A program made the position numbers and the translations under genes. The notes beneath the pieces were generated by a model. That model made no database searches. It worked only from the letters and a program-made list of their open reading frames with translations, and was not told the origin of the DNA. From NCBI GenBank assembly GCA_963769845.1, contig CAVYNL010000033.1, positions 1 to 64,000 of the forward strand: DNA of 64,000 bases, in the 5' to 3' direction. Positions 2,281 through 54,280 of the stretch are shown here, piece after piece (within the stretch, counting starts at the first letter, position 1; each line of letters starts with the position of its first letter). This DNA is from Candidatus Bathyarchaeota archaeon. GTDB taxonomy: Archaea; Thermoproteota; Bathyarchaeia; Bathyarchaeales; Bathycorpusculaceae.

Positions 2281-2290
2281 AGCGCGCGCT
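2281..2290. repeat. AGCGCGCGCT palindromic decamer, located 3 nt after the methyltransferase stop codon
   Basis: Exact match read from the sequence. Confidence 0.9.
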
Positions 2291-2454
2291 AACACCAAAG
2301 CCGCGAGCATTTTCGTAGACTACGTCCACTCTTGTAAGTTCAGGAGGAATCATTTCGGTTCGACGCATATTCCACCACTGAGCTAACCATCCATGAGGAC
2401 TTCACGTGAAAGTTTTTTATCTCAAGTGTACGTAATGCTCAAGCAGTGAGTCTA

Positions 2455-2619
2455 ATGGCTAAATGCCCCAAGTGTAAGAAGGAAATCAGCAAACCCGAGA
2501 AGACTTGGAAGATGGCTGGTAGAAAAGACAAGAACGGCAAAAGAACCGAACTCACAATAGGCCTCTACAAATGCTGCGGGAAGACTTTCAGGTCCGTATT
2601 GAACAAACGCAAGATCTAG
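2455..2619 (+). CDS. zinc-ribbon miniprotein (54 aa), missed by the ORF-track length cutoff
   Basis: My own translation: MAKCPKCKKEISKPEKTWKMAGRKDKNGKRTELTIGLYKCCGKTFRSVLNKRKI. Two Cys pairs (CPKC ... CCGK) with a basic composition. It lies on the strand opposite a low-complexity 60-aa track ORF. Confidence 0.5.
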   Translation: MAKCPKCKKEISKPEKTWKMAGRKDKNGKRTELTIGLYKCCGKTFRSVLNKRKI

Positions 2620-2959
2620 ACCAAGCAAAATCAACTTCCCAACTTTTTTCTATCCAAAAACCAGCGTACTGCATGTGACCCCCAACTTCTCTCGCTCTAA
2701 TGAAATGGAACGTTTGGTTATGAAGAAAACAAGCCTTGACAGGGCTTTGGAGCACATCACGTCCCGTGTTGAAAAAGAGGAGAGCGTTGCTCTAGGGATG
2801 CATCCGTGCCAGCGCGCGGTAAACTTCGATCTGCGCCGCAATCTTCAGCTTTTCGTTCTTTATCTTCATGTTTTTTCACCTCAAACAATCCATAACGGCT
2901 TTGACACTTTAAACATCGACGCACGTAATGCGAACACAAGAAAACCTCACAAATTGTTA

Positions 2960-3230
2960 CTATACCTGGCACCTGCGCACACGCGCGCGTTTGGACTGAG
3001 CACAGGCTCTGGTACTTCGGCCTGACACCCGCAGACGAACCCGCAGTACAGTAGATACCCGATCCCATTCATGGCGACGGAGTCTGCATCACGGCGCTGG
3101 GGATTCCGGCATTCCACAGGTCCAAAGGGAAGAACGCGCGCTTCGCCCCCTCCGCCAGTTCTTCCCCGCCGCCTCCTGCTCCTCCACAATACGCATAGCA
3201 GGCGAGTGATCGATTGGGCATCTATCTCAG
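2960..3230 (+). ncRNA. possible structured non-coding RNA. A weak SRP-RNA helix-8-like motif is present (CAGGTCC-AAAG-GGAAGAAC).
   Basis: A GC-rich segment of about 270 nt contains no convincing ORF; the track ORFs here are short, overlapping and low-complexity. The palindromes at 2981-2990 (ACGCGCGCGT) and 3134-3142 could pair. The segment CAGGTCCAAAGGGAAGAACG resembles the universal SRP RNA motif CAGGUCCGGAAGGAAGCAGC. Identity is uncertain. Confidence 0.15.
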
Positions 3231-3297
3231 GAAGCCATTATGATGGAGACCGATAAGAAAATTAGGACCTTCACGGACTAGTCGGCAGGGAAGAACC

Positions 3298-4110
3298 ATG
3301 CTAGATAAGCTTGAGAAGGTCTTTGCAGTTTTGATCTGCGCGTCTTTCGTCGTTCTAGCCGTTCCTGTTGGGGCAACCGAGTACAATCCAGGCGTCCAAG
3401 TCGGGTATTGGGTCGAATACAGGAATCTTATTTCAGGCGGGACCGGCAACCCTGAGGATTTCAACGCCACAGAATGGATGAAGATGGAAGTCATACTTGT
3501 CACTGGAAACAGAGTCACTGTTCATACGTCTCGGATGCTCATGAACGGCACTTTCCAAGACGGCTCAGACTATGTGTTTGATGTTGCAACGCGAGAAACA
3601 GACCGTTCAGGAGACTCGAGCAACCTGTGGAACAATTATCTTGTGGTTGCAGGTAATCTGGCAGAAGGCAGCGATACGCACCTGCTAGTGGCGCTTCCTG
3701 AAGGTTCGGCTGCAATGTTTATCAACAAGACCGAAACGAAAGGCCTGCTCGGCATGAACAGGACGGTCAACCTAATCGACTGCAACGAGTCGTTTAACGC
3801 CATTCCCGACTACGACTTTGAATTTCACCTTGTGTACGATCAGGCAACGGGCATGATGCTGGAACTGAATTATTCACTGACATCACATAGTATCCCCAGC
3901 ACCAATGAAGTGGTCTCGTATTCCGCTGCGGAAATCAACACGACGCCGAAGTCGTCTGACAACACGCTGACTTACGCGGAAGTGACAATCGCAGCTGTCA
4001 TCATCGTGGTCATTGCAGCTGCACTTGTAGTTAGACGAAGAAGAAAAGCACATGCCGCGGGGTCTGTGAAGAAAGTTGCGAAAGAGAAAGCCAAAAAAAT
4101 AGCGCGCTAG
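3298..4110 (+). CDS. secreted, C-terminally membrane-anchored glycoprotein (hypothetical surface protein)
   Basis: N-terminal signal peptide (MLDKLEKVFAVLICASFVVLAVPVGA). Many N-x-S/T sequons. C-terminal TM segment followed by a basic tail (IAAVIIVVIAAALVVRRRRK). Confidence 0.55.
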   Translation: MLDKLEKVFAVLICASFVVLAVPVGATEYNPGVQVGYWVEYRNLISGGTGNPEDFNATEWMKMEVILVTGNRVTVHTSRMLMNGTFQDGSDYVFDVATRETDRSGDSSNLWNNYLVVAGNLAEGSDTHLLVALPEGSAAMFINKTETKGLLGMNRTVNLIDCNESFNAIPDYDFEFHLVYDQATGMMLELNYSLTSHSIPSTNEVVSYSAAEINTTPKSSDNTLTYAEVTIAAVIIVVIAAALVVRRRRKAHAAGSVKKVAKEKAKKIAR

Positions 4111-4314
4111 GGCGTTGCTAAATCGAATTGTTTGTGTCAATTTCTGCTCACCTTCCAAGCACAGTTGCATTCTCCTAACACTTCTACGTACTAGTCATGG
4201 GCGTCTGGCCAAGCCAAAGCATGACCAAACAAGTTCATGTTAATTCATCGAATTTAGCAACACGCTGGCGCGCTCACTCTGCAGATTTCTGAAACGGGGA
4301 GGAAACCGATTCGT

Positions 4315-7885: not shown

Positions 7886-8087
7886 TTGATCTTCGCAGCT
7901 TTCCAAGTCCCGTTTGCTTTTCTTGTTTGTGGATCATCGGCTAATTCGACGAGCTACCAGAATCGCAATGCACGCTGTGTCTTTGGGCATAACTGTATTC
8001 GAACGAAAAAGAGGAAGGGGCCTTCTTCCTTGCGACTGATTACAAAAAAAGAAGGGGAAAACGAAGTAAAGATGTTAGCTTTATGAA

Positions 8088-8210
8088 CTAGTATCTTCTC
8101 GGCGGTCTTCGTTTAGAAAAACACTCGTTGCAGTACACAGGTCTGCTGCCGTCTGGTTTGAAGGGAACTTCACATTCCTTGCCACATTCAGCGCAGACCG
8201 CTTTGTGCAT
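8088..8210 (-). CDS. zinc-ribbon miniprotein (40 aa), below the ORF-track cutoff
   Basis: My own reverse-strand translation: MHKAVCAECGKECEVPFKPDGSRPVYCNECFSKRRPPRRY. It has a CxxC-x17-CxxC motif and a basic tail, a pattern typical of widespread small Zn-ribbon proteins. Confidence 0.5.
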   Translation of the reverse strand: MHKAVCAECGKECEVPFKPDGSRPVYCNECFSKRRPPRRY

Positions 8211-8839
8211 CTCTCGATTATACATCTTGCTCTTTCAACTCCTTATGCTATTTAGCGCAAAAAAAGACTTTCTTGCACGGAAGTTGATCCGTCGCCTATG
8301 CTTTAAACCTATCTATTAGGGCGCGCCATAATGTCCAAGACTGGAGGTGTGGCGAGACTGCGTTTTCCTCGTTGCCGAAGACACAGCACTGCATCTTCTG
8401 CGCCGAATCGCCGGAATATTGTAAATACTCCATGCAGAGCGTAGTAGGCTCTTTCCGAGCTGCATATACATTTCGGACACCTCTTCAAAAAACCCAGATT
8501 TGAAGAATCATGATCAGCCAAGGCATGCTTCTCACGTGAGAGATCTCACTCAGGAGAATAGCGTTCTGTTCTCCGGTGCAATTCCTGCCAACTGCGAAGA
8601 TGCTCATGTGGATCTGACCCAAACCGGTCCATATGCTTCTTAAGATCCTCTTCTGAGCAGAAACGGCAAGAACAGAAGCGGCAATCAAGTTTTTGTTCTT
8701 CGCTTTCCACGCGGATCCCTTAAAGGGCAATCTGCTATAACACATTTAAACATTTGTTCATTTTCCAGCACGCGCTATTAAGAAGGTTTAAGAAGTGAGC
8801 CGAGATTCCTCTTGCTTCAGAAAAGGCTGGCAACGAAAC

Positions 8840-9256
8840 ATGAGCACAAATGTAACCACTATCCGACAGAAGACGTTAATCCCGGCTACTCCAAACGAGG
8901 TTTACGAAGCATTCATGGATTCAAAAAAGCATTCTGCCTTCACAGGAAGCAAAGCAAAATGTGATCCGAAGGCAGGAGGAGAATTCACGGCTTGGGACGG
9001 GTACATCTCGGGCAGAAACCTGGAGCTGGAGAAGGGAAAGAAGATAGTGCAAGAATGGTTGACATCTGAGTGGCCAGACGGTTATTCTCCTTCAAGACTG
9101 GAATTGACATTCAGGAAAGTGAAGGACGGCACCGAAATATCCATGGTTCATTCGAACGTGCCAGCAGAGCAGGCAGATGATATTGCAGAAGGATGGACAG
9201 AGTTCTACTGGAAACCGCTCAAAGAATACTTCACGAAACGAAAGCCCAAACAGTAG
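8840..9256 (+). CDS. SRPBCC superfamily protein (AHSA1 / activator of Hsp90 ATPase homolog-like)
   Basis: TIRQKTLIPATPNEVYEAFMDSKKHSAFTGSKAKCDPKAGGEFTAWDGYISG is typical of the AHSA1/SRPBCC fold. The start is taken at the internal Met (MSTNVTT). Confidence 0.7.
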   Translation: MSTNVTTIRQKTLIPATPNEVYEAFMDSKKHSAFTGSKAKCDPKAGGEFTAWDGYISGRNLELEKGKKIVQEWLTSEWPDGYSPSRLELTFRKVKDGTEISMVHSNVPAEQADDIAEGWTEFYWKPLKEYFTKRKPKQ

Positions 9257-9656
9257 ACAATACGCGAAACGAAAAAGAAAAACTGAGATTTTGCAGTTGA
9301 GCTCTCTTCTGGGTGTCCAATACACACGGGCATCATTGGTAAATTCTCGCCAGTCTAAATCACATTAGCAATTGTGGGAATGAGCACTTTATTCTTTCGT
9401 GCCTCACAAAGAACAGTTGCAGAGGAAGAGATTTCATGCTGGGGCAGCAAAAAATGTTGGATGTGAATTTGTATTCGGTGACTCTGTGCTTCTCGGAAGT
9501 GAAACTGGTACGACTGGCACTGTTGGAAAAAGGTTGGCAGCATCAGCTCAGCATGAAGTCTTGACAAGTCGAACCGTGCGGATGGGTCATCTTTCATTAA
9601 TCCTTAAATCTCGGGTTGCTTGTGTTGTTACACTGTGAAGAAGGGGGAAAATTGAG

Positions 9657-11057
9657 ATGGACTTCGACGTAGGAACGATAGCCGCGATTGTAGGCATAGC
9701 ATTCTTGGTTGTAGTTGTTGTTGTCTTCATCATTTCGAGAAGCTACACGGTTGTTAAGCCATCAGAGGCTCACATTGTTGTCAGACGCAAAGGCAGGAAA
9801 GTCTACAGTTCTAGGGAAGGACAGAGATCGGCATATTGGTATATCCCTTATATCATGCAAAGGTCTGTTCTGCCGCTGGAGAACATCAAGCTTGTGATTC
9901 CGAATATTCCCTTGAGAGACATTGACATGGCAAAGTTCGCTGGGGATGTCAGGTGCTGGCTGAACATTGAGAATCCTGACCTTGCAGCAGAGAAGTTGGG
10001 CAAGGTGGAAACTGAGGGAATGACAGGTTTCCCCGCGATACAGGCTGACGTCAAGGACCTGATTGAAGCTGTTGCAAGGAACTCTTCTATGAAGATGGAT
10101 GTCGTCAATATCATGAAGGACAGGGCCAAGTTTAGTCAGACAGTGAAGGATGAAGTGGCTCCAATCCTGAAGACTGAATGGGGAATAAAGATTGCAGGTC
10201 TAGAAGTCATCTACTTCAGAGACATTGAGAACTACACTGTCATCAAGGACATTGAGGCAAGACAGGCAAAACTGATCGAGACAGAGACGAGGAAGCAGTT
10301 GGCAGACTACGAGAAGAACGCAGCAATAGTTGAGGCCATTGCCAATCAGGAGAAAGAAACACAGAGAGCACAGGCAGAAGAGACATACAGGATCAGACAG
10401 ATTCAGAAGGACCAAGCTATAGGGCAAAGCGACCAGCAGAAACAGCAAAACATTGCAATGGCTACTCAAGAGGCTAATAAGCAGACTGTTGAGGCTAACA
10501 GACTCTTGACCGTAGGAAACGCTGAGATTGAGAAGCAGGCCGCCATAACCAGAGCAGATGGTGAAGCTCAATCCAACGTAAAGAGAGGGGATGGGACTGC
10601 TCAGGTGACGAAGCTGACGGGCTTTGCAGAAGCAGATGTCAGCAGGCAGAAACTGTTTGCCGAAGCAGAAGGCACTGAAAAGAAGGCATTGGCGCTCAAA
10701 CAGTACAATGAAGCAGGTCTGTCCTTGGAAGTCATCAGAGCGAATCAAGCCATCAAAGAAGCCCAGTTTGCCGCCCTCAGCGAAGGACTGAAAGTAGCTA
10801 AGATCAACCTTGTGACGAGTGGTGAAAGCAACATTCTGGGCATTCCTGTGAGCGCGGAGATGGGAGCAGACCTTGGAGCCATGCTGATTGCGTTGCAGAA
10901 TATGGGAATAGACATCACCGACCTTCTCAGAAAACTGCCGATAACCGAGACAGCCAAACTTGCCATAGCTGCAAAAGCAGGAATCAGCGTAGCCAAAGAA
11001 GGAACAAAAGAAGCAACCAAAGAAGCCCAACCTAAAGGCAAGAAGGGATCTGAATGA
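9657..11057 (+). CDS. flotillin / SPFH (band 7) domain protein
   Basis: N-terminal TM segment, then an SPFH domain, then a long coiled coil rich in E/A/Q (EAQ-type repeats), followed by a C-terminal region. 466 aa, typical of flotillin/YqiK. Confidence 0.85.
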   Translation: MDFDVGTIAAIVGIAFLVVVVVVFIISRSYTVVKPSEAHIVVRRKGRKVYSSREGQRSAYWYIPYIMQRSVLPLENIKLVIPNIPLRDIDMAKFAGDVRCWLNIENPDLAAEKLGKVETEGMTGFPAIQADVKDLIEAVARNSSMKMDVVNIMKDRAKFSQTVKDEVAPILKTEWGIKIAGLEVIYFRDIENYTVIKDIEARQAKLIETETRKQLADYEKNAAIVEAIANQEKETQRAQAEETYRIRQIQKDQAIGQSDQQKQQNIAMATQEANKQTVEANRLLTVGNAEIEKQAAITRADGEAQSNVKRGDGTAQVTKLTGFAEADVSRQKLFAEAEGTEKKALALKQYNEAGLSLEVIRANQAIKEAQFAALSEGLKVAKINLVTSGESNILGIPVSAEMGADLGAMLIALQNMGIDITDLLRKLPITETAKLAIAAKAGISVAKEGTKEATKEAQPKGKKGSE

Positions 11058-11320
11058 CTCAGATAGAACTCGACAAGCTCAGTCCAAGAGCTAAAGAACT
11101 ACTGGAAATCTTTGCAAAGACGAGCGGCGTGGCAGATCTCTCAATGGTCATTCAAGATGAAACCTTCAGCATCTTTGAACTCATGAAACTGATCGATACC
11201 ACAAGAGATCCAAAGATCTATCCACAGGACTCAGTACTTGTCTTCAACACGGTGAAAGCTGTGCTCGCGAAATTTAGCAGATTTGGGCAGCCGACAAAAT
11301 TGACAGAACAAGAGCCCTAA
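11054..11320 (+). CDS. hypothetical 88-aa protein translationally coupled to flotillin (ATGA overlap)
   Basis: Its start overlaps the flotillin stop codon. No recognisable motif. Confidence 0.45.
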   Translation: MTQIELDKLSPRAKELLEIFAKTSGVADLSMVIQDETFSIFELMKLIDTTRDPKIYPQDSVLVFNTVKAVLAKFSRFGQPTKLTEQEP

Positions 11321-11346
11321 CAATCTTCTCTTTTTTTGCGCGCGCT
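11321..11346 (+). terminator. T-tract (CTCTTTTTTTG) immediately after the stop codon, followed by a GCGCGCGCT palindrome
   Basis: Archaeal termination occurs at oligo-T tracts. A T7 run lies 10 nt past the TAA codon. Confidence 0.3.
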
Positions 11347-11535
11347 ATCAGCGTCCAATATGGGTTTGTTTGATGGCTAAATCTTGGTCGTGTTGAGAGA
11401 TGGTGAATCACGGGAGCTCCGCCTGATGGCCGGCGCGAAAAATGGTTGTGCACCTCAAAACCGCCCCAAAACCCCAAAAAAGAAATAAAAACCACTTTTG
11501 ACCATCTTAGGAACACGCATGCGCGCTATAATAGC

Positions 11536-11883
11536 ATGGTGACTTCAATGATCACGTATGAGGATTTCAGAAGAGTTGACATGCGAGTAGGCAGAATCTT
11601 AGAAGTGGAGCGTTTCCCAGAGGCAAGAAAGCCTTCCTACAAGCTGAAGATAGATTTCGGTCCACAGATAGGTGTAAAGAATTCCAGTGCCCAGATCGCA
11701 GGGTACAGGAAGGACGAACTAATAGGGAGATTAGTCATAGCCGTTGTCAATTTTCCTCCTAAACAAGTGGCCAACTTTCAGTCTGAAGTCTTGACTCTAG
11801 GAGTGGCAGATAAATCTAAGAAGAATAACTGGTTCTTGATAGAGCCTGACAGGGACGTAGATTTGGGTACCAGAGTAGAATGA
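11536..11883 (+). CDS. csaA: tRNA-binding protein CsaA/Trbp111 (EMAP/MetRS C-terminal-like OB fold)
   Basis: ITYEDFRRVDMRVGRILEVERFPEARKPSYKLKIDFGPQIGVKNSSAQI...RLVIAVVNFPPKQVANFQSEVLTLG is a classical tRNA_bind domain. Confidence 0.75.
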   Translation: MVTSMITYEDFRRVDMRVGRILEVERFPEARKPSYKLKIDFGPQIGVKNSSAQIAGYRKDELIGRLVIAVVNFPPKQVANFQSEVLTLGVADKSKKNNWFLIEPDRDVDLGTRVE

Positions 11884-12167
11884 CAGAAACCTTTCCGACG
11901 CACCCACGCCCAGAATCCCAAATGAGACCACGATCGAGCAAACGACCTTCGTTTCTTTCCTCAAAAATCAGGTTTGCGGGAGACGTCGCCACGCGAGTTC
12001 GCCCCAATCCCGAACCTGTGAATGCGTGCGTCCAAGGGTTCAAACGTGAGCTTTGACCTGTCGATCCCAGACAGTATCATGATCTGAGCAATCTCCGGTT
12101 TTTTAGGAGTATAGACGTCGCAGCACTAGCGACAAGAAATCCGAGAAATAAACAATATAAGACACAT

Positions 12168-12779: not shown

Positions 12780-12977
12780 ATCTGTATAGTGCACAATGGC
12801 ATTATACAATTAGCAAAAAGAGCTTGCCGAAGACATCTCTTTCGATGTGCTCGTGTAATGCATTACAGTCTGAGAGCGCGCGAGAGATTTCGCCGCCTGA
12901 TGGGGGCTCGGATCCCACTTTGCCCACCAAAAGCCTTGGATAGCATGTGCTGAGGTTGTGTCTGGCTTGATTGTCGT

Positions 12978-16545: not shown

Positions 16546-16555
16546 TTTGTTCTTA
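16546..16555. repeat. AGCGCGCGCT palindromic decamer, intergenic within the AT-rich islet
   Basis: Exact match. Confidence 0.9.
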
Positions 16556-16570
16556 GCGCGCGCTCGGATT

Positions 16571-21747: not shown

Positions 21748-21798
21748 TCTGAACGCGAACTCGCTCACGCGTCTTTGGCTTTGTTCACAGATTGCGCA

Positions 21799-22680: not shown

Positions 22681-22796
22681 GGAAAAACACCGAGAATGGC
22701 ACTGAGAATATGAGACCGTTCAGCACAGGTTTAGCCTTCGCGGCCAACTTCCGATCACCACGTTCGACCAAGAGCGCGCCAACCACGGGCAGCAAT

Positions 22797-25232: not shown

Positions 25233-25244
25233 CCACCAGCGCGC

Positions 25245-25264
25245 TCCCAACAGACTTGTTGGGA
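25245..25264. terminator. perfect 9-bp-stem hairpin (TCCCAACAG-AC-TTGTTGGGA) between the convergent genes rps3ae and korG, adjacent to an AGCGCGCT motif
   Basis: Inverted repeat read directly from the sequence. Confidence 0.25.
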
Positions 25265-36540: not shown

Positions 36541-36550
36541 AGCGCGCGCA
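36541..36550. repeat. AGCGCGCGCA, a one-mismatch variant, 6 nt after the ABC-2 permease stop
   Basis: Read from the sequence. Confidence 0.8.
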
Positions 36551-42697: not shown

Positions 42698-42707
42698 AGC
42701 GCGCGCT
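42698..42707. repeat. AGCGCGCGCT palindromic decamer, intergenic
   Basis: Exact match. Confidence 0.9.
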
Positions 42708-42862
42708 ATCGAAAGCGCCAGCCCGAAGACAAGGTCAGACAGAGTTTCTATGCGCGGCCGAGGACGAGAGCCTTGGTTGTTTTCAGTCAGCAGCTAGGCC
42801 TCCATGCTTCATTGTGCTATAACCGTCATGAGGTTTCAGCCTTTTCCTGTTCTGATGCGGAT

Positions 42863-43519: not shown

Positions 43520-44890
43520 TCATTTGCGGATGTACTGCTCAGTCGACAGGTGTTCCATTTTCATTCCCAAGTCTGCCAAGAATTTGAGGTCTTCAACGCA
43601 GCCTATGCTTGCGTCGATGTTGCGGTGCACAGGATGGAACCACATGAACTTGGGTACGAGGTTAAATTGCAACGGCATTCTTGTTGTGACACCGTATTTT
43701 GCGTTTAATCCGCCGATAAGAAGGTCTTTGGCGCAGGCCAAACGTGTAGTAGTGTAGCTTTTCAGCAGCTCTGAAGCTCCGAACGCTCCAATGCCGTGCC
43801 ACAGCACCGCGTTTTCGGGCGACGCGAGCGAGTAAAGGAAGAACTGCGGTGACGAAGGCGTTTGTTTGTAGTCGTAGTTTGTCAGTTTTTCTGCTTCGAC
43901 CGTGAAGCTGTCGTCTGCTTTGGCGACGCTTACGTCCGCAGGGTCGATCGCGTTGGGATACAACAGGACTGTGCGATAGTCAACTTTGACGTTTTTCACT
44001 TTAGTCCCATCAAAATAGATTCTTCCTCTGGCTGCGCGCTTGGAGCTGTAGCCCTTCGAAGAATGGGGAACGGTGAGCAGAGTTGTGAGGCTTTTCATGC
44101 TTCGGCCCATACATCTGTAAATGCACTCGAAGGTCTCGTAGTCTGCGTGAGCTTTCTGTATGACGTGATGGAGCAGCCCATCAGGAGTTTCCTTCTCCAA
44201 AACCGATAGAGGCATCCGCGTCGAGTAAACCTGCAGGTTCAAACCGAAAGGTGCTGAAAGGCTCTCCAGCTGCTCATACTTGACTGCGTCGACCATGTCA
44301 ACGTAGCTGTTGTTGCACGAACGCAAGTGCTTGGCTATGAGCTCGATTTCGCTCTTGCATATGAGCGAACCGTTGTATTTTTGTGCAAAGTTCTGGTCAA
44401 TGCCAAGGCTTTCCGTTTTCACACGTGCACAGGAAAAGGCGCTTTGGCCGCTGTTTACTATGGATTCTTTGAACGGGTTCATGGAGTATCTGTCTGCCTC
44501 GATTTCGTCTGTGTTGAGTAGGAAGGGCACGATTTTTCCTTCAGGAGGCTTCTTAAGAAGCTCACAGATCGTGTCGACATCTCTCGCATCTGGAATGTGC
44601 AACCCTGTGCCGTGGAAATGGTTGCCGCAGACCTCCAGCAGACGGGCTGCGATGATGCCTTGGACTTCTTCCACAGTCAGTTGAGGGTTTGAGTATTCGA
44701 CAGACGCTCGGAGGAAGAAGTGACTACCGTCGAAACTTAGATCTTCCCTCCGGCTGTTCTTGAAATAGTAGAGGCAAGCTTTTGGTCGCTTGCCCTCAAA
44801 GGCGCTGAGTTCTTTTACTATGGCTTCGACGCATGTCCAAGAGTTCTTGAGGAAATCTTCAACGATGATGCGACAATTGTCCTGTGACAT
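43520..44890 (-). CDS. conserved hypothetical protein (456 aa), family not recognised
   Basis: Long ORF of ordinary composition. Abuts the GNAT gene with a 7-nt gap. Confidence 0.5.
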   Translation of the reverse strand: MSQDNCRIIVEDFLKNSWTCVEAIVKELSAFEGKRPKACLYYFKNSRREDLSFDGSHFFLRASVEYSNPQLTVEEVQGIIAARLLEVCGNHFHGTGLHIPDARDVDTICELLKKPPEGKIVPFLLNTDEIEADRYSMNPFKESIVNSGQSAFSCARVKTESLGIDQNFAQKYNGSLICKSEIELIAKHLRSCNNSYVDMVDAVKYEQLESLSAPFGLNLQVYSTRMPLSVLEKETPDGLLHHVIQKAHADYETFECIYRCMGRSMKSLTTLLTVPHSSKGYSSKRAARGRIYFDGTKVKNVKVDYRTVLLYPNAIDPADVSVAKADDSFTVEAEKLTNYDYKQTPSSPQFFLYSLASPENAVLWHGIGAFGASELLKSYTTTRLACAKDLLIGGLNAKYGVTTRMPLQFNLVPKFMWFHPVHRNIDASIGCVEDLKFLADLGMKMEHLSTEQYIRK

Positions 44891-45736: not shown

Positions 45737-45834
45737 ATGTATTGGAACCTCGGAACGCGGGGTGCGCCAATGTCAAAGCTTATACGAAAGGATAAACTTT
45801 ACTAAAAGAAGAGGATTGTAAGGTAAATTAATGG

Positions 45835-45844
45835 AGCGCGCGCT
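45835..45844. repeat. AGCGCGCGCT palindromic decamer, intergenic, adjacent to the C3A3 repeat tract
   Basis: Exact match. Confidence 0.9.
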
Positions 45845-45986
45845 AAAACTTTATCCCCCAAACCCAAACCCAAACTACTACTTACAACTATATACTTACT
45901 TACTCTCTCTTAACACACCGTACAAGACATACAAGACATATAACAAACACACATAAGACACACAACAGAACTGACGGTTTTTAAAA

Positions 45987-46019
45987 CAGTTTTTTGGTTT
46001 TGCGGAAAAGTTATAAGCT
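45987..46019 (+). promoter_or_regulatory. promoter-like element CAGTTTTTTGGTTTTGCGGAAAAGTTATAAGCT (BRE/TATA-like), duplicated at 46921-46953
   Basis: A 33-nt element about 85% identical at two sites, each upstream of an alpha/beta hydrolase gene (46041 and 47015). Confidence 0.3.
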
Positions 46020-46040
46020 AAAATATAACAGAATGGGCAA

Positions 46041-46871
46041 TTGCTAACTCGTTTGAGTGTCTGGCGTTTGGTAGACAAGGGTTTTGCAGAAGTGAATGAC
46101 ACTAGACTTTACTACGAGATAGTTGGCAGAGGGCACCCGTTAGTGCTTGTTCACGGGCGGTCCCTTAATTCTAAAATGTGGGATGACCAGCTTGAAGTCT
46201 TTGCAAAACGTTTCAAAGTGGTGCGTTACGATGTGCGTGGCTTCGGCAAATCAGCATCTCCAACAGTCGGGAAAGAATACAGCCACACGAAGGATTTGAA
46301 AGCCCTTCTGAATCAGTTAGGGATTGACTACGCATGCGTTGTCGGTCTTTCTATGGGCGGCGGAATTGCTCTTGATTTCACTCTTGAATATCCAGAAGTG
46401 ACTAGGGCTCTCATACTTGTTGATTCCATTCTTGGAGGGTTTCAAGATTGGTCAAAGACCTATAGAGAATTGATGGAATCTCTCTGGAAAGAAGCTAAAG
46501 AAAAGGGCGTAGAGGCAGCAAAAGACATGTGGAAGAATTGCCTCATATTTAAACCAGCTTGCGAGAAGCCAAACGTGGCTTTTCGACTCAAACAGATGAT
46601 TTCTGACTACTCTGGCTGGCACTTTGTCAACCCCGACCCACTACGCTCTTTAGACCCGCCCGCAATAGAACGACTTCAGGAGATTAAAGTTCCGACCCTC
46701 ATTATCGTAGGTGAGCGTGACTTGCCAGATTTTCACAGAATTGCTGACATCCTGAGCGAGAAGATACAAAATTCTAAGAGAATGACCCTGAAAGGAGCGG
46801 GACACGTGTCAAACATGGAAACTCCAAGAGAATTCAATGAGGCTATATTGAGTTTTCTTACCAACGCTTGA
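46041..46871 (+). CDS. alpha/beta-fold hydrolase
   Basis: Nucleophile elbow GLSMGG and HGRSLN oxyanion region. 276 aa. Confidence 0.8.
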   Translation: MLTRLSVWRLVDKGFAEVNDTRLYYEIVGRGHPLVLVHGRSLNSKMWDDQLEVFAKRFKVVRYDVRGFGKSASPTVGKEYSHTKDLKALLNQLGIDYACVVGLSMGGGIALDFTLEYPEVTRALILVDSILGGFQDWSKTYRELMESLWKEAKEKGVEAAKDMWKNCLIFKPACEKPNVAFRLKQMISDYSGWHFVNPDPLRSLDPPAIERLQEIKVPTLIIVGERDLPDFHRIADILSEKIQNSKRMTLKGAGHVSNMETPREFNEAILSFLTNA

Positions 46872-46920
46872 GATGGCACACGCATGTTTTCGTGACTATT
46901 CTCTATCAGCCCTCTTAAGC

Positions 46921-46953
46921 CAGTTGTTTTTGTTTTGCGGAAAAGTTATGGCT
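46921..46953 (+). promoter_or_regulatory. second copy of the GTTTTGCGGAAAAGTTAT promoter-like element
   Basis: See 45987-46019. Confidence 0.3.
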
Positions 46954-47014
46954 GGTAGGATTTGGTGTGTAACTCTTCTACGAGTCTTTAAGAACAGTTT
47001 GGAGATAGATAGTT

Positions 47015-47845
47015 GTGTGGTGGCAGATGAAGAAGCCAGTTCCAGTTACATTTGAGAGCAAAGGTGCAAATATCCACGCAATCTTCTATCAAGCCTCTGG
47101 AGTTGAACCATTGCCAACAGTAATCCTTTGTCATGGGTTTCCTGGAAACAACACAGACGTGCTTGGACTTGGCGAGAGATTGATGAAAGAAGGGTTCAAT
47201 GCCATTGCCTTCAATTACCGTGGCACTTGGGGAAGCGAAGGACTATACACGGATGCGAACGCCCTAGAGGATGTAATCTCGACCATACGCTATGTGAAAT
47301 CCCGTTCTGTTGTCCAAGAGTTCAACGTTGACCCGTCAAGTATCACCATCATAGGATACAGTTATGGTGGCGGCATGGCTTTATTGGGCTCATTGAATGA
47401 CGCCGCCGTGAAAAGAGTGGTCGACCTTGCTGGAGCCAACCTTGGCGGTGTGGGAAGGATGATGCAACAGAGTGATGAATTCAGGCGATGGCTTGAAAAG
47501 AAAGTGGACCAAGACATATCAGATTCAGGTTTCAGAGCCCCTAAGGCTAGAGAACTTTTTGCTGCGATGCTTGCAGATGTGGATAAATACGATTTGGTGA
47601 AGCATGCTCAGGCACTGTCTTGCAAAGATATTCTGATAATCGGTGGATGGCGTGACCAGGAAGCTGACCTAGAACATCACATATTGCCTCTGTTCCGAGC
47701 ATTGCAGAGGCACGGAGCCAAACAAGTGCAAATAGAAATCTTTGACGCAGACCACTCCTTTACAAATGAAAAAAGTCAGTTGGCAGACAGAATAGTATCT
47801 TGGTTGAAGAGGAGTAAAGTTTTATCCAAAACCCAAAGATGCTAG
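47015..47845 (+). CDS. alpha/beta-fold hydrolase (dienelactone-hydrolase/peptidase S9-like)
   Basis: GYSYGG nucleophile elbow, Asp/His downstream. 276 aa. Confidence 0.75.
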   Translation: MWWQMKKPVPVTFESKGANIHAIFYQASGVEPLPTVILCHGFPGNNTDVLGLGERLMKEGFNAIAFNYRGTWGSEGLYTDANALEDVISTIRYVKSRSVVQEFNVDPSSITIIGYSYGGGMALLGSLNDAAVKRVVDLAGANLGGVGRMMQQSDEFRRWLEKKVDQDISDSGFRAPKARELFAAMLADVDKYDLVKHAQALSCKDILIIGGWRDQEADLEHHILPLFRALQRHGAKQVQIEIFDADHSFTNEKSQLADRIVSWLKRSKVLSKTQRC

Positions 47846-47897
47846 TTAAATATAACTTGAGTAATTTCCACAGGAATGCAGGAGGTAACATGAACAT

Positions 47898-48215
47898 ATG
47901 AGCCATGGAAGTTTTGCTACCGCTATTAACTGCATGGATGGTCGAACACAAATCCCAGTTATCGACTATATCCGTAAAAAGTACAAGGTAGACTACGTTG
48001 ATATGATTACGGAGCCTGGCCCAATTAGGGTTTTAGCTGAAAACAAGGATAAGCCGACGCTTGAATCTATGAAACGAAGAGTTGGAATCTCTACAGGGAA
48101 GCATGGTTCGGGCCATATTGTAATTGTTGGCCATCATGACTGCGCTGGAAATCCCGTAGAAAAAGAAACGCAGCTCAAACAAATTCTAGAGTCGATAAGG
48201 ACAGTTCGATCATAG
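47898..48215 (+). CDS. small (105 aa) protein carrying the beta-carbonic-anhydrase zinc-ligand signature (CxDxR ... HxxC)
   Basis: C12-M-D14-G-R16 and H79-H-D-C82-A-G. The spacing of about 67 residues is comparable to beta-CA, but the protein lacks the flanking beta-CA segments. Confidence 0.45.
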   Translation: MSHGSFATAINCMDGRTQIPVIDYIRKKYKVDYVDMITEPGPIRVLAENKDKPTLESMKRRVGISTGKHGSGHIVIVGHHDCAGNPVEKETQLKQILESIRTVRS

Positions 48216-48223
48216 CGCGCGCT
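48214..48223. repeat. AGCGCGCGCT palindromic decamer overlapping a stop codon, between convergent genes
   Basis: Exact match. Confidence 0.9.
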
Positions 48224-48227
48224 AGTC

Positions 48228-49265
48228 TCAGTTTGCCCTTTTCTTCCTGTGGATTTCTCTTTTGAGTCTTTGGTCCTCTTTGTATTTGGTTCGGCAAGGG
48301 TTTCCTTCAGCTCTGAATACGTCAAGATTCTTCAGGCCTGCGGTTATCGACCACAGCGTTCCCAACTTTATTTTGTCCTGATGAGAACATACGTAGCCAG
48401 TGTGATCTGACATGATTCGTTGTGCTGCTTCCAAGCTCATTTTGCGTCCCTCCTTTCGTATGCTTTCAGAGATGGCTAAGTATCGTGGGATCGTATCCCA
48501 ATTCTCTATCTTTCGACGTTCCAGGTCCTCATACTGCTGCATCTCAGGAAGAACAAAATGATTTGTACATACGATGAAGTTCTCGCCGTTCTCTGGTCTA
48601 CGAATCATGACCTTGTCGGGCGAGACTTCGGCGACGGCCATATCACCTGTATCGTCAGCCAATAAGAAGTTGGCGTTGGCTGAAGCATGCATGCCCAAAA
48701 TGCTTTTTGAGGCTTCTTTGACGCTGGCGCATTTGTCAAGCACTGATCTCACTGCCAGTGCGAAACTGATTCCGGGTTTGACGGCTTTGTCGCATAGACC
48801 TGTCATCGCGATAGCCAAGCCATCTTCGTTGATGCCATCTTCTCTTCCTATGAAAACATCAGAATGCCCGAGGCTGATGAAAGCATCTTGGGGTGCGGTC
48901 AGATAGCTTTCCGTGTACTTCTTGAAGCTGTAGAAGAAGTCATAGTTTCTCCCGAATATCACATCAGAGCCATTAGACGCAGCGAAGCTGCTACACATTG
49001 GTTGAGGTTTGAAAGCTCCAATCGTCAGCATGAAAGCTGCCATGTCGTTGTATGAAGCGTGACAGGCTTCTGAGAAGCCTCTAATCTCGTCCAATATTTC
49101 TGGAAAGACTCTTCTTACTTCGGACTCAGATTTCGCGGCAAAATCAAGCTTTTCTTCTGGTTGGGCTGCGACTCTGAAGCCATGCCTGTACAATATAGCT
49201 CCATAGCTGCGTCCCATGTCATAATATGAACCTTTTATCCTCGGATGATACATATCCTGCTTCAC
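48228..49265 (-). CDS. peptidase C45 / acyl-CoA:6-APA acyltransferase-like Ntn-hydrolase
   Basis: The internal nucleophile motif MCSSFAASNGSDVIFGRNYDF is typical of C45/choloylglycine-hydrolase-fold autoproteolytic enzymes. Confidence 0.65.
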   Translation of the reverse strand: MKQDMYHPRIKGSYYDMGRSYGAILYRHGFRVAAQPEEKLDFAAKSESEVRRVFPEILDEIRGFSEACHASYNDMAAFMLTIGAFKPQPMCSSFAASNGSDVIFGRNYDFFYSFKKYTESYLTAPQDAFISLGHSDVFIGREDGINEDGLAIAMTGLCDKAVKPGISFALAVRSVLDKCASVKEASKSILGMHASANANFLLADDTGDMAVAEVSPDKVMIRRPENGENFIVCTNHFVLPEMQQYEDLERRKIENWDTIPRYLAISESIRKEGRKMSLEAAQRIMSDHTGYVCSHQDKIKLGTLWSITAGLKNLDVFRAEGNPCRTKYKEDQRLKREIHRKKRAN

Positions 49266-49409
49266 TCTACTACACTATTATCTGCCTTGACAAAAAGTGT
49301 TTCCGACGCTTCTGGAATGTTTTTTGTCTTCTTACGGATTAATTTTGCCGAAAGGCACATTTATTTGCCGAAAGGTAGAAGGATACTCGCATCAGGAGTG
49401 GCAAGCTGG

Positions 49410-49700
49410 ATGAACTCTCAGGAAAAAACGGAAAGACTTCTTAAGGCGTTGGGCGATAAATCTAGACTTCAAATCTTAGAATGCATACAAGGAGACATAA
49501 GCAACCCGGGCAAGATAGCACTTAATCTTAATCGTCACAGATCAACAATCGAAAAACATCTCCGTGTCCTGCTGAGAGCTGGAATCGTGGAGAAGACTCC
49601 ATCACTTACAAGCCAAGGCAACTTGTCAATCAAGTACAAGATCACCGAGAACGCGGCAAAACTGCTCGCAGCCCTCAAAGAAGCCTGCAAAGAATTCTAA
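49410..49700 (+). CDS. ArsR/SmtB-family winged-helix transcriptional regulator
   Basis: LKALGDKSRLQILECI...IALNLNRHRSTIEKHLRVLLRAGIV. Start set at the internal Met. Confidence 0.65.
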   Translation: MNSQEKTERLLKALGDKSRLQILECIQGDISNPGKIALNLNRHRSTIEKHLRVLLRAGIVEKTPSLTSQGNLSIKYKITENAAKLLAALKEACKEF

Positions 49701-49704
49701 TCAG

Positions 49705-49716
49705 AGCGCGCGCGCT
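49705..49716. repeat. AGCGCGCGCGCT, an extended 12-mer version, between the convergent arsR and ATP-cone genes
   Basis: Read from the sequence. Confidence 0.9.
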
Positions 49717-49725
49717 CAATTAGAT

Positions 49726-49974
49726 TTACTCTTTCTTTGCTGGCTTTTTGTATGTCTCGTAGGCTTTTGCAGCTTTAGGGTCTAGCGGTCTAAGTTCGGT
49801 TATGACCCATCGCCTTATCACGACAGTCGTCGTTCCTTGCTTTACTTTGCCTGCAATCTTCTCGGCAATTTTTGTTGCGTGTTCATCTTTGGCTCCAGCT
49901 TTCTTAACAGAAGCTTTCAATTTTGCCTTATTGAAATCCTCAGAACGTTTCTTCACTCTAACCAAAGAAACCAC
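49726..49974 (-). CDS. ATP-cone domain protein
   Basis: VRVKKRSEDFNKAKLKASVKKAG...IAEKIAGKV has an ATP-cone-like periodicity. 82 aa. Confidence 0.45.
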   Translation of the reverse strand: MVSLVRVKKRSEDFNKAKLKASVKKAGAKDEHATKIAEKIAGKVKQGTTTVVIRRWVITELRPLDPKAAKAYETYKKPAKKE

Positions 49975-50130
49975 CGTAGATGCATATCATAGATGCCAAT
50001 TTAAAACTTTCCACATGCAATAGTTTAAGCTTTGGAGGAAATGGATGGATAAAAAATATACAGGGGAACCGAAGGATATTTTACTAATTGATATCATTTC
50101 GATGCAAAGGCAACAGGAGAAACAAGCGCT

Positions 50131-51786: not shown

Positions 51787-51793
51787 TTTCGTA

Positions 51794-52351
51794 ATGTTCA
51801 AAGATGAAATCCTGGAGAACGAAAAACGCAAGAAGATATACGAAGTCATAGAGGCAAATCAGGGTATTCATCTTAGGGAACTGCAGAGAATCCTCGAAAT
51901 GCCAGTAGCGACAGTAGAATACCATGTCAGCTACATGACCAGAAGGAGAATCATATACAGTGAAGCAGACGAGCACGTCAAAAGGTACTATACACGGCCT
52001 CTGGACCCGGAAGACAAGAAAGTTCTCTCAGCACTCAGACAGAAGAAGCTTAGAGAAATCGTCTTGGTGATATTGTCGGACCAGAAGGCAAAGTACCAGT
52101 TCCTCGCAAACTGTTTTGAGTTGCCACATTCGACACTTTCGCTCTATCTCAAGTACTTGGTTGACAAGGGCGTTCTCGACAGGGAGAAGGTGGGCTACGA
52201 GAACATCTACACCGTTCACGATGAAGACAGAGTGGCGAAAGTGCTGGTAGCCTACAAGTCAAGCTTCATGGACACACTCGTCGACAAGACGCTGGCGACT
52301 TGGATGGAAACACGAGTTCGACGAGAAGCCAGCATGCCGCTACAGTCTTGA
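51794..52351 (+). CDS. transcriptional regulator with tandem winged-helix domains
   Basis: KKIYEVIEANQGIHLRELQRILEMPVATVEYHVSYM, and a second wHTH-like segment KLREIVLVILSDQ...LSLYLKYLVDKGVL. Confidence 0.5.
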   Translation: MFKDEILENEKRKKIYEVIEANQGIHLRELQRILEMPVATVEYHVSYMTRRRIIYSEADEHVKRYYTRPLDPEDKKVLSALRQKKLREIVLVILSDQKAKYQFLANCFELPHSTLSLYLKYLVDKGVLDREKVGYENIYTVHDEDRVAKVLVAYKSSFMDTLVDKTLATWMETRVRREASMPLQS

Positions 52352-52904
52352 TCCAAGCTTTGTTCGAATCCCGTTCAAAGTTTGTCCGACGGCTCTTATA
52401 TGGGCGAAATGGAAAGTGTTTACATGTCGGAGGTTGAGAGCAAGTGGACGCATCTTGTTCCTCACGAAAAATCGTCAAGGTCTGGAACGACCTAGATTTT
52501 CATTCTCCTCTCCTTTCTCCCCTTTGGGCCTCTCCAGACCTTAACGAGAACCTCCAAAGGAACAGGAACACAACCTGACGCTAATGGAGAAGGTGGCGCG
52601 ACCCTTGAACGAACAAGCATTGGTCGTAGAGCGTGATGCCCTGAAGAAGACGCTACTTGAGGACATGAAGGAAAAGGATTCAGTGGAGCACAAGATAACT
52701 GTAGAATTTCAAGAATTGAAAAAAGTCGAAGTTTCGCTAGAAAAACTGCGATCAAATCACAGACCGCGTGTTTAAGGCACGGCTAGACTCTTAGATCAAT
52801 CGGCACCCATGCCCACAGGATTAGAGTCGCGCACATTCCCTTCGATTTCCAGTCCTGAGATGGAGCGAAAGCAAAATATACTTGTCGTCATTTGGCATAG
52901 GTGC

Positions 52905-54269
52905 ATGGTAAGAAGAATCGCAGTTATCGGTATGGGGTACGTCGGAATACCTATCGCAGCCCTTTTTGCGGATGTTCCAGGTTTTGAAGTCGTCGGCGTG
53001 CAACGTAGGTCTAAGCGTTCTGGATGGAAGATTGACTGGCTGAACAAGGGAAAGAACCCGATCGGCGGAGATGAACCAGGCTTATCTGAGCTTATTGCAC
53101 GCGTTGTGAAGAAGAAAACCTTCAAGGTTGTTGAGGACATCGCCGTCTGCAAAGATGCCGAAGCCGTGTTGATTGACGTGCAGACGCCAACAGACGCTAA
53201 CAGAGTTCCTGACTATTCATCGTTGAAGGACGTTGCCGCGCAAGTTGGCCAGTACATGCGGCCAAAGACGCTTGTGGTTGTCGAGTCAACTGTAGCCCCC
53301 GGGACAACGAACAACATTGTGAAGCCCATCCTGGAGAAGAGTTCGGGCCTGAAGGCAGGCAAGGATTTTTCGCTGGCCTTCTGCTACGAGAGGGTAATGG
53401 TAGGGCGGCTGATCAGGAATATTGTGGAGCTTCCCAGAATAGTCGGAGGAATTGACGAAGAAAGTACCAAGCGTGCGTTAGAGCTGTACAAGCATGTTGT
53501 GAAGGCGGGGCTCTACCCTACGGATGCACTTACGGCGGAAGTGACCAAAGTCGTCGAAAACACGTACAGGGACGTTAACATCGCCTTTGCCAACGAAGTG
53601 GCACTGATTTGCGAGAGTCTTGGCGTCGACGCCTACAAAGTGCGAGAACTAGTCAACACGCTCCCAAACGACCCCAAGAACCCGGCTTCAAACCCTGTGA
53701 GGAACATGCACTTCCCAAGCGGGGGAGTCGGGGGACACTGCTTACCAAAAGACCCGTGGCTGCTCAAGTACGGCTTGGATACCTACGGCAAGTTCAAATT
53801 CTGTCCAAAGGTCATAATCGGAAGCAGGGAACTGAATGATAAAATGCCGGCACACGTTGTAGACCTGCTAGAAGAAGCCTTGATGGAACACGGCAAGAAA
53901 CTGAAAGGGACAAGAATAGCCATATTGGGTGTGGCTTTCCTTGCAAACTCCGACGACACAAGAAACACTCCGTCGGCTACACTGTATGAAGAGCTGAAGA
54001 AACGCGGCGCAAAACCAGTCCTTCATGACCCACTTGTCCGCGACTTCGAACTACCTTTCACCAAAGACTTGGACGAAGCCATAAGAGGCGCAGACGCAAT
54101 CATTCTTTCCACGAAACACAAGCAGTACCTCACACTAGATTTGAAGAAACTGAAGAACAAACTAGCAACTCCAGTCCTGATCGACGGCGGGAACGCTTAC
54201 AGCGAAGAAACAGCAACCAAAGCAGGATTCACATACCGAGGGATCGGCAAAGGCAAAGCGAAGAAATAA
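52905..54269 (+). CDS. nucleotide-sugar dehydrogenase (UDP-glucose / UDP-N-acetyl-D-mannosamine 6-dehydrogenase family)
   Basis: IAVIGMGYVGIPIAALFA Rossmann motif and the catalytic Cys region GGHCLPKD. Confidence 0.85.
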   Translation: MVRRIAVIGMGYVGIPIAALFADVPGFEVVGVQRRSKRSGWKIDWLNKGKNPIGGDEPGLSELIARVVKKKTFKVVEDIAVCKDAEAVLIDVQTPTDANRVPDYSSLKDVAAQVGQYMRPKTLVVVESTVAPGTTNNIVKPILEKSSGLKAGKDFSLAFCYERVMVGRLIRNIVELPRIVGGIDEESTKRALELYKHVVKAGLYPTDALTAEVTKVVENTYRDVNIAFANEVALICESLGVDAYKVRELVNTLPNDPKNPASNPVRNMHFPSGGVGGHCLPKDPWLLKYGLDTYGKFKFCPKVIIGSRELNDKMPAHVVDLLEEALMEHGKKLKGTRIAILGVAFLANSDDTRNTPSATLYEELKKRGAKPVLHDPLVRDFELPFTKDLDEAIRGADAIILSTKHKQYLTLDLKKLKNKLATPVLIDGGNAYSEETATKAGFTYRGIGKGKAKK

Positions 54270-54270
54270 G

Positions 54271-54280
54271 AGCGCGCGCT
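54271..54280. repeat. AGCGCGCGCT palindromic decamer, 2 nt after the sugar-dehydrogenase stop codon
   Basis: Exact match. Confidence 0.9.

Follow-up and report, generated by a model that had tools for sequence, protein, structure and literature searches.

Several kinds of described sequence come close to the palindromic decamer AGCGCGCGCT, here also written A(GC)4T, which recurs in a 64,000-nt stretch of DNA from Candidatus Bathyarchaeota archaeon (assembly GCA_963769845.1, contig CAVYNL010000033.1, positions 1 to 64,000; hereafter the window). The repetitive extragenic palindromic (REP) sequences, bacterial interspersed mosaic elements (BIMEs) and REP doublet hairpins (REPINs) of Enterobacteria and Pseudomonas are dispersed, extragenic and palindromic, lie just downstream of stop codons or between convergent genes, are patchy among relatives and are known targets of insertion sequences (IS). 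The highly iterated palindrome HIP1 of cyanobacteria (GCGATCGC) is a short, perfect, GC-rich palindrome that is hugely over-represented in one lineage, and its recognition by a dimeric DNA enzyme (a methyltransferase) has been implicated. The DNA uptake sequences (DUS) of Neisseria and the uptake signal sequences (USS) of Pasteurellaceae are over-represented 9-12-mers with lineage dialects, DUS often being found in terminators downstream of genes. The attC sites of integrons are palindromic sites at gene 3' ends, on the border of conserved and variable DNA, while archaeal oligo-T and bacterial hairpin terminators are found right after stop codons, where transcription units end. The decamer shares features with each of these. 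An earlier note on the window, made from its letters, had taken the organism for an archaeon, which is correct: it belongs to Bathyarchaeia, which are among the most abundant uncultured archaea of sediments and peat and in which little is known of how genes are delimited.

In the window, AGCGCGCGCT is present in six exact copies (2281, 16555, 42698, 45835, 48214 and 54271) against 0.11 expected from dinucleotide-preserving shuffles, and none of 100 shuffles reached six. Thus the large enrichment of the decamer that had been proposed is real and specific; the perfect copies were also correctly placed, apart from the one put at 16546, which was off by 9 and lies at 16555. The 12-mer AGCGCGCGCGCT at 49705 and the variant AGCGCGCGCA at 36541 were both verified. 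With three other 8-nt runs (TGCGCGCGCT at 11337, ACGCGCGCGT at 2981 and ACGCGCGCGG at 63167), the window holds 11 alternating-G/C runs of at least 8 nt (the six exact decamers, the 12-mer and four near-variants), and all 11 are non-coding. Under a third-order Markov model, the two most enriched 10-mers of the window were GCGCGCGCTA (117-fold) and AGCGCGCGCT (102-fold). Sequences with one mismatch to AGCGCGCGCT numbered eight, four of which retain the (GC)4 core, as compared with six perfect copies; no tail of degenerate copies outnumbers the perfect ones. Among intergenic runs of the window, lengths of 2-5 nt were at expectation and lengths of 6-7 nt were elevated 2-4-fold, while runs of exactly 8 nt were found 10 times against 0.2 expected. 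The motif is, like HIP1, a short perfect palindrome in very large excess; the total counts of 8-, 10- and 12-nt palindromes, on the other hand, equalled the shuffle expectation, and template-switch mutagenesis, which would give a general palindrome excess, was rejected on this ground. The close variants that had been listed are real GCGCGC hexamers; five such hexamers occur within called genes, at 4102, 11521, 28570, 31379 and 44034.

Related loci (numbered with L) were gathered in three sets: relatives of the UDP-glucose dehydrogenase of the window, the best of which share 86-87% amino-acid identity and come from Bathyarchaeia metagenome-assembled genomes (MAGs); loci from a metagenome scan with gene 43520-44890; and loci of HdrA homologues. 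The core count set consisted of the window and 26 Bathyarchaeia genome loci (523 kb, 22% intergenic). In this set, runs of at least 8 nt were intergenic in 50 cases and coding in seven, and the 8-mers (GC)4/(CG)4 were found 98 times between genes against 2.1 expected (47-fold) and 11 times in coding DNA against 11.8 expected. By comparison, (AC), (AG) and (GT) repeats were near or below expectation, and the intergenic excess of (AT) and (CT) repeats was only 3-5-fold (six against 1.2 expected for (AT)4, 14 against 4.7 for (CT)4). General microsatellite slippage was therefore rejected, as other dinucleotide repeats lack a comparable enrichment. A depletion of the motif within genes was apparent under a first-order Markov model and vanished under synonymous-codon shuffling (76 coding runs of at least 6 nt against 84); for this reason no avoidance in genes is claimed, and the fair statement is that the motif occurs as often as expected in genes and some 50 times more often than expected between them. 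Since it is over-represented rather than under-represented, a restriction-avoidance signature, one of the origins suggested in the earlier note, is excluded. The motif is thus neither equally frequent in coding regions nor a reflection of dinucleotide composition.

The enrichment is also restricted by lineage. The 8-mers occurred 96 times in Bathyarchaeia loci against 12.8 expected, and only six times in non-Bathyarchaeia loci with a G+C content of 0.42-0.60 against 17.6 expected. A published survey reported GC6 and GC8 patterns to be suppressed in prokaryotes in general (PMC4060949); tracts that are normally selected against are here some 50-fold enriched between genes. Related genomes share the motif in part: it recurs in Bathyarchaeia loci, with length dialects from (GC)3 to (GC)7 among lineages, and is confined to part of Bathyarchaeia, being patchy even between loci of 90-95% protein identity. 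Full-text searches of the literature found no description of the motif (GCGCGCGC) in archaea or Bathyarchaeota, and the intergenic (GC)n pattern, which is real, appears to be undescribed.

Within the spacers the motif keeps close to stop codons, as had been noticed from the sequence. Ten window copies lie in spacers flanked by a stop codon, and for seven of them the distance to that stop is at most 12 nt, where random placement in the same spacers predicts 0.76 (P<1e-5). The spacing from stop to motif ranges from 1 to 9 nt, and all three stop codons are represented; the stop codon is thus not part of the motif. The adjoining genes are mutually unrelated and mostly supported by Pfam matches (a methyltransferase, an ABC-2 permease, an AAT hydrolase, an ArsR-type helix-turn-helix (HTH) protein, a UDP-glucose dehydrogenase and a 2-hydroxyacid dehydrogenase), the exception being the open reading frame (ORF) beside the copy at 16555. 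In other genomes the bias toward stops was weaker than in the window (nine of 27 copies at 30 nt or less from a stop, against 4.8 expected; P=0.018), and for eight of the 13 runs in L164 the stop of a long ORF is found 0-52 nt upstream. In spacers between tandem genes, copies were skewed to the upstream stop (median relative position 0.20; Kolmogorov-Smirnov P=0.025), none falling in the start-proximal quarter. No copy was found inside a tight operon, and the tandem spacers that carry one leave at least 95 nt for the next promoter. Divergent spacers held 10 of 48 copies against 12.6 expected from their length. In being extragenic and concentrated at gene 3' ends, the motif resembles REP/BIME sequences.

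The individual copies illustrate this placement. The exact decamer at 2281..2290 lies 2 nt past the TGA of methyltransferase gene 1547-2278 (+), that at 16555..16564 is 6 nt past the TAG of ORF 16571-17149 (-), which has no Pfam match and a weak coding score, that at 48214..48223 is 4 nt past the TGA of AAT-family hydrolase gene 48228-49265 (-) in a convergent spacer, and that at 54271..54280 is 1 nt past the TAA of UDP-glucose dehydrogenase gene 52809-54269; in relatives, the spacer after this last gene carries (GC)4-5 runs at different offsets (~50-330 nt). The 12-mer at 49705..49716 occupies the center of a 25-nt gap between the convergent stops of ArsR-type HTH gene 49245-49700 (+) and ATP-cone gene 49726-49974 (-). 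Among the variants, that at 36541..36550 is 5 nt past the TAA of ABC-2 permease gene 35420-36535, and its spacer runs in the order stop, 5 nt, motif, ~60 nt, conserved TATA box, ~28 nt and ATG of gene 36645-37328; the matching spacer has a (GC)4 run in unalignable flanks in L006 and none in L007. The variant at 11337..11346 is 16 nt past the stop of gene 11054-11320 (+), and that at 63167..63176, which lies between convergent genes, follows the TAA of 2-hydroxyacid dehydrogenase fragment 62688-63161 at a distance of 5 nt. The variant at 2981..2990 (in the CGCGCGCG register) is found in a stretch of ~1 kb (2279-3297) without a confident gene call, together with shorter runs at 2812 and 3135. 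Two exact copies, at 42698 and 45835, are described below with the variable DNA in which they lie.

Apart from the alternating core, the copies have little in common. The sole flank preference is an A on the 5' side and a T on the 3' side, symmetric on both strands, and the flank logo is flat except at position -1/+1. A BLAST comparison of 251-nt windows (the motif with ~120 nt on each side) against all loci revealed no dispersed similarity around solo copies, only orthologous gene ends being matched; together with the flat logo, this led to rejection of the solo copies as part of a larger repeat or miniature inverted-repeat transposable element (MITE). A 10-bp GC palindrome had been judged too short to act as a hairpin terminator by itself, and the folding results agree: the predicted hairpin energy was -0.9 kcal/mol for the decamer and -2.9 kcal/mol for the 12-mer, and four of six 30-41-nt contexts folded no better than shuffles, the other two (36541 and 49705) having some extra flank pairing (z of -1.8 and -1.5; -10.9 kcal/mol for the 12-mer, one of only two copies with extended flank complementarity). 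An intrinsic hairpin terminator was accordingly rejected, the folding being negligible. Inspection of 126 flanks for T-tracts, TATA boxes and composition profile yielded nothing positional: in the 3' flanks of the window, T4-5 is only 25-75 nt off, if present, and of the archaeal oligo-T type (T5 or longer) a single tract adjoins a copy, the T7 immediately before 11337. No Rfam family or tRNA was detected at the motif at the gathering threshold or at E<=1.

These properties set the motif apart from each of its counterparts. A REP is an imperfect palindrome of 20-40 nt that folds into a true hairpin, and REPs are linked to REP-associated tyrosine transposases (RAYT), whereas the motif is a bare 8-10-bp perfect palindrome; a scan of 30 window proteins turned up no RAYT (Y1/HUH) transposase domain. 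Both HIP1 and the uptake sequences occur commonly inside genes. The motif differs from HIP1 in being at expectation there and enriched between genes with a bias toward stop codons, and from DUS and USS, which are non-palindromic and conserved between strains, in being palindromic, without a coding excess and unconserved at 98-99% identity. The attC sites are 57-141 nt long, have defined core sites and need an integron integrase, while the motif spans 10 bp, no integrase is present and the inserted segments described below are not flanked by it exactly at both junctions. In contrast to terminators, it lacks a stable hairpin and, with the exception of 11337, an adjoining T-tract.

How is such a motif read? 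We tentatively interpret A(GC)4T as a dispersed extragenic palindrome of the REP/HIP1 kind, which a putative dimeric protein reads as duplex DNA and which marks gene 3' ends and transcription-unit boundaries, and we assign this interpretation a probability of about 0.35. The earlier note had likewise leaned toward a protein-recognition site, which is the most economical proposal, consistent with the two-fold symmetry (A/T flanks included) and with the discrete length peak at 8. Because the 10-mer is discrete and two-fold symmetric, its flanks are symmetric and its positional rule is strong, we infer that a protein recognizes it, that it acts as DNA and that it has a role where genes end. A symmetric (dimeric), sequence-specific protein would bind the motif as duplex DNA, and the motif would act at the distal edge of a gene, marking the boundary of a transcription unit. 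Being a palindrome, a single copy could serve both neighboring genes, as might be the case for the 12-mer between the two convergent stops at 49705. The partner would act transiently, by cutting, strand passage, recombination or help in termination, which is likelier than a static roadblock because the copies are only 1-10 bp past the stop codon. For the same geometric reason, a statically bound regulator, such as the global regulator that had also been suggested, fits poorly. If the motif is a gene-end signal, it would represent a non-canonical archaeal terminator or boundary element and offer a handle for finding its protein partner.

Several observations weigh against this interpretation. 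i) Judging from the footprint of RNA polymerase, a protein bound stably at 1-10 bp from the stop should halt the polymerase before it has transcribed the stop codon. ii) About one-fifth of the copies are in divergent spacers, where no gene 3' end exists, and the excess in convergent spacers (19 against 13.7 expected, from de-duplicated loci plus metagenome loci with crude gene calls) is not significant; an early estimate of a three-fold convergent excess was lost after near-duplicate loci were removed and metagenome loci were added. iii) In L002, L085 and L136, which are 98-99% identical, the copies are no better conserved than their flanks. iv) The motif is patchy even over short evolutionary distances, an odd behavior for a core signal of gene ends: L160 (95% HdrA identity) and L161-L163 (92%) are without any (GC)3-or-longer run in 5-14 kb, while L164 (90%) has 13 runs in 22 kb, and L082 is without a run of at least 8 nt in 19.6 kb, while L085 has five in 19.5 kb. 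v) The ~2 Mb of related loci analyzed are fragments chosen around three genes, and genes outside the JGI-annotated loci were called by a simple Markov caller built for this analysis.

Copies of the motif turn over and are often found near the edges of variable DNA. Among L002, L085 and L136, one run has an abutting 12-nt indel together with a (GC)4 to (GC)5 change ((GC)4 vs (GC)5 in L002 and L136), and two further runs each carry a G>A substitution (two events). Given these indel, substitution and length changes among near-identical genomes, single copies are under no visible purifying selection, and selection of this kind on single copies is unsupported in the trio. At one orthologous site, the run is (CG)4.5 in L032, (CG)5 in L025 and (CG)6.5 in L027. 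Compared with its nearest relatives, the window has extra DNA at ~7.9-17.2 kb, 21731-22798, 25233-25438, ~42670-42855 and 45805-50071, and in four or five of these five segments a (GC)3-or-longer run is 6-40 nt from one edge. One of them, a 4.27-kb island (45805..50071; five genes and three motif copies), is specific to the source genome, being absent from all near relatives (L002 and L080-L087), encodes two alpha/beta hydrolases, the AAT-family hydrolase, the ArsR-type HTH protein and the ATP-cone protein, and is flanked by imperfect short direct repeats (ACTTTACTA / ATTTTACTA); the exact decamer at 45835..45844 sits 31 nt inside its left edge, in a divergent spacer. Genes 42863-43474 (-) and 41120-42589 (-) are separated by a spacer with a ~155-nt insertion that is again specific to the source genome; the decamer at 42698..42707 lies within this insertion, ~40 nt from its promoter-side edge. 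At 25238..25245, the short form AGCGCGCT, i.e., (GC)3, is 6 nt past the stop of ribosomal protein S3Ae gene 24624-25232 and 6 nt into a 206-nt segment (25233-25438) missing in L161; the GCGCGC at 22774..22779 is ~20 nt from the right edge of the ~1.07-kb segment 21731-22798, also missing in L161, and follows the stop of ORF 22797-23132 (-) at a distance of 17 nt. In L081 (3051-3140), a 1.9-kb deletion relative to the window has TTGCGCGCGC exactly at the junction; it removes an M48 peptidase gene and truncates a Rieske-type gene (window 40795-41100), and the contig is possibly chimeric. The synteny of L002 and L085 also stops exactly at a GCGCGC (98-99% identity in the region that they share, 95% in the final 213 nt of the alignment). 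This junction evidence is partly confounded, since conserved sequence usually ends at a stop codon, where the motif sits anyway. The segment at ~7900-17220 (~9.3 kb) holds ~10 genes, including SPFH/Band 7, AHSA1-like, tRNA-binding domain and CggR-N/DUF4443 regulator proteins, and five (GC)3-or-longer runs; in L161, where it is missing, the CCG-domain gene directly adjoins the Pyr_redox/FlpD operon.

A longer element with GCGCGC tips is found in the same genomes. At 4102..4273, between convergent genes, ~170 nt are bounded by inverted arms GCGCGC-N7-GTTGCTAAAT(T)CGA that are ~120 nt apart; the left GCGCGC overlaps the final codons of gene 3298-4110, and the right one is 41 nt past the HdrA stop. 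The sequence folds at -58 kcal/mol (z = -4.9). It belongs to a family of ~150-200-nt elements with conserved inverted arms, GCGCGC-N7-GTT(G/C)CTAAATTC, and a variable interior, found at non-orthologous sites in several Bathyarchaeia. Further copies are at L002 13507-13656, L015 11060-11221, L009 1093-1294, L088 up to 171, L166 314-497, L165 61-87 and L167 305-328; the last three loci (L165-L167) are IMG/VR contigs carrying element-arm copies. A scan of viral contigs for the arm gave three matches where ~20 are estimated by chance, which makes their number uninformative, and the matches inspected are real arm copies. The arms occur as TTGC or TTCC variants, with both arms changed together, the interiors of the L015 and L166 copies are similar by eye, and the consensus fold of the alignment has a 21-bp terminal stem with three compensatory pairs; no Rfam family matched. 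With terminal inverted repeats and dispersed non-orthologous copies, the element at 4102-4273 looks like a MITE or a REPIN-like hairpin tipped with GCGCGC, its doublet architecture recalling the latter; the GCGC/GCGCGC at both ends may be either a target-site duplication or the tip of the repeat. Its relation to solo copies is seen after HdrA: L164 has a solo run 35 nt past the stop and the window element starts 41 nt past the same stop, with unalignable flanks, while L160, L161, L168 and L169 have nothing there. The (GC)n sites may thus serve the hairpin element as targets or be what remains of it. Solo copies, on the other hand, are without its inner arm and are not single arms of it. In L147, a fragment of an IS5-like transposase (...VVLDASFIKA; 499-1190) lies beside three half-sites in the same orientation, GCGCGC-N7-TTCCNAAAT (519, 1207 and 1743), and is a possible lead to an autonomous partner of the element.

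The patchiness, the unconserved copies, the lineage-specific edges and the GCGCGC-ended element raise an alternative that the earlier note had not considered, in which (GC)n has no host function and is either left behind or targeted by mobile DNA or break repair, being formed or used on insertion, excision or re-joining. It could be the target or terminal sequence of the GCGCGC-capped hairpin family, or arise by a 4-bp GCGC duplication of AGCGCT (staggered cut plus fill-in), with copies persisting only where an insertion of 8-10 bp is harmless, i.e., outside genes. The four window edges, the deletion junction, the synteny break and the length polymorphism with its abutting indel all fit such a process, as do the GCGCGC at both ends of a dispersed element, the solo run after HdrA in L164 at an offset similar to that of the window element and a coding frequency at expectation. 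Insertion at random wherever tolerated, however, gives no reason for copies to sit 1-10 nt after the stop when spacers are 90-470 nt long; nor do the discrete 8-nt peak, the symmetric A/T flanks and the lack of a growth series in the window follow from it. Moreover, solo copies have neither a remnant of the inner arm (GTTSCTAAAT) nor other shared flank similarity, the window has one full element against 11 solo copies, no transposase partner is established beyond the IS5-like fragment beside half-sites in L147, and, as the borders of variable DNA mostly fall at gene ends, the junctions in part count one observation twice. We consider a purely mobile or repair-derived origin the main rival of the gene-end interpretation and somewhat less probable than it; if it is correct, the motif would be the record of an unusual mutational process that shapes the flexible genome. 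In a further proposal, a dimeric DNA enzyme that is horizontally mobile (a type II topoisomerase-like protein, a nuclease or a recombinase) would recognize and cut the decamer at gene 3' ends, where it would relieve torsional stress or end transcription. Such an enzyme would also create its own sites, since fill-in after a 4-bp staggered cut within AGCGCT yields AGCGCGCGCT, and broken sites would seed insertion of foreign DNA and deletion. A single mechanism would then account for the placement after stop codons, the patchy phylogeny and the link with indel junctions, and it would amount to an archaeal gene-boundary system that is both signal and mutagen; we regard it as a long shot. Under either a signal or a mobile origin, the motif provides a simple marker for binning, for the definition of transcription units and for the tracking of sub-lineages.

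Other explanations account for less of the pattern. A 3'-untranslated-region element acting in RNA, through mRNA stability, processing or ribosome interference and maybe by pairing of copy with copy, would agree with the location of most copies where the 3' untranslated region would begin and with the predicted homodimer of the decamer RNA, which is very stable (-19.9 kcal/mol), any two copies being complementary; in E. coli, REP elements within ~15 nt of a stop affect mRNA decay and translation. The monomer fold is useless, though (-0.9 kcal/mol), the contexts fold no better than shuffles with two partial exceptions, the strand-symmetric flank preference is unusual in an RNA signal, ~1/5 of the copies lie in divergent spacers, the 45835 copy is upstream of the neighbor's conserved promoter and outside any predicted mRNA, and no Rfam family matched, all of which make an RNA-level role improbable. 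The DNA-uptake-like or methylation signal put forward in the earlier note, or a self-marking sequence (read by a competence receptor, an orphan methyltransferase or a defense system, and spread by molecular drive), would likewise be short, exact, over-represented and dialect-like between lineages, and both in-run substitutions are G>A (C>T on the other strand), as in deamination of methylated cytosine, albeit with only two events. This proposal is weakened by the lack of a coding excess, even at synonymous sites, by individual copies that are unconserved between near-identical genomes and by a density of at most ~1 per 6 kb; no competence or methyltransferase gene was linked to the motif, and none was present in the partial set of window proteins scanned. 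We hold it to be distinctly improbable. Alternating CG is the best former of Z-DNA, and A/T pairs at the borders cheapen B-Z junctions. The motif, an alternating CG run within the range of at least 6-8 bp required and with A/T at both borders, could thus be a Z-DNA tract that absorbs supercoiling generated by transcription. Its tract is just 8 bp, however, and by the twin-domain model the copies are misplaced, being at or below expectation in divergent spacers (negative supercoiling; 10 against 12.6) and commonest at 3' ends and in convergent spacers (positive supercoiling); such tracts are also generally selected against in prokaryotes (PMC4060949). A Z-DNA function is accordingly very improbable. 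Finally, chance, base composition or ordinary dinucleotide-repeat slippage finds support in the (CG)4.5-6.5 length polymorphism at one orthologous site, a microsatellite trait, but the smooth length distribution and the slippage of other repeats that accompany it in dinucleotide microsatellites are not seen here, and the 0/100 shuffles, the 47-fold excess restricted to intergenic DNA, the discrete 8-nt peak and the suppression in other archaea of the same G+C content leave this explanation hardly any credibility.

Some minor observations concern the runs themselves. In L120 (2759-2810) and L121 (6018-6069), two (GC)4.5 runs are 34 nt apart (starts 43 nt apart), with the word AAAGTTGAAATG repeated before each, and similar close pairs are present in L004 (132/188) and L076 (14403/14463); such close (GC)n pairs could form hairpins as small doublets. 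The metagenome contig nearest to the window (L160, 5 kb) ends a few bases from the position that corresponds to the window GCGCGC at 8321; (GC)n runs might break short-read assemblies and so bias motif counts in MAGs downward.

Others concern the genes and spacers of the window. The D-2-hydroxyacid dehydrogenase beside the 63167 copy (62189-63161) appears to be divided between two ORFs (62189-62743 and 62688-63161) that overlap and differ in frame, which suggests a frameshifted pseudogene or a sequencing error. Near the first decamer, GGTTAGCTCAGTGGTGGAATATGCGTCGAACC at 2330-2400 (- strand) resembles the 5' half of a tRNA (acceptor plus D-arm); ARAGORN and Rfam made no call, and the resemblance may reflect a piece of a tRNA, a tRNA that is split or has an intron, or mere coincidence. 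The 2.1 kb at 56738-58839 contain only overlapping low-scoring ORFs and no confident gene call; they lie upstream of a 1042-aa ORF (58839-61967), which, like the 456-aa ORF 43520-44890 used in the metagenome scan, is without a Pfam domain and is conserved in Bathyarchaeia.

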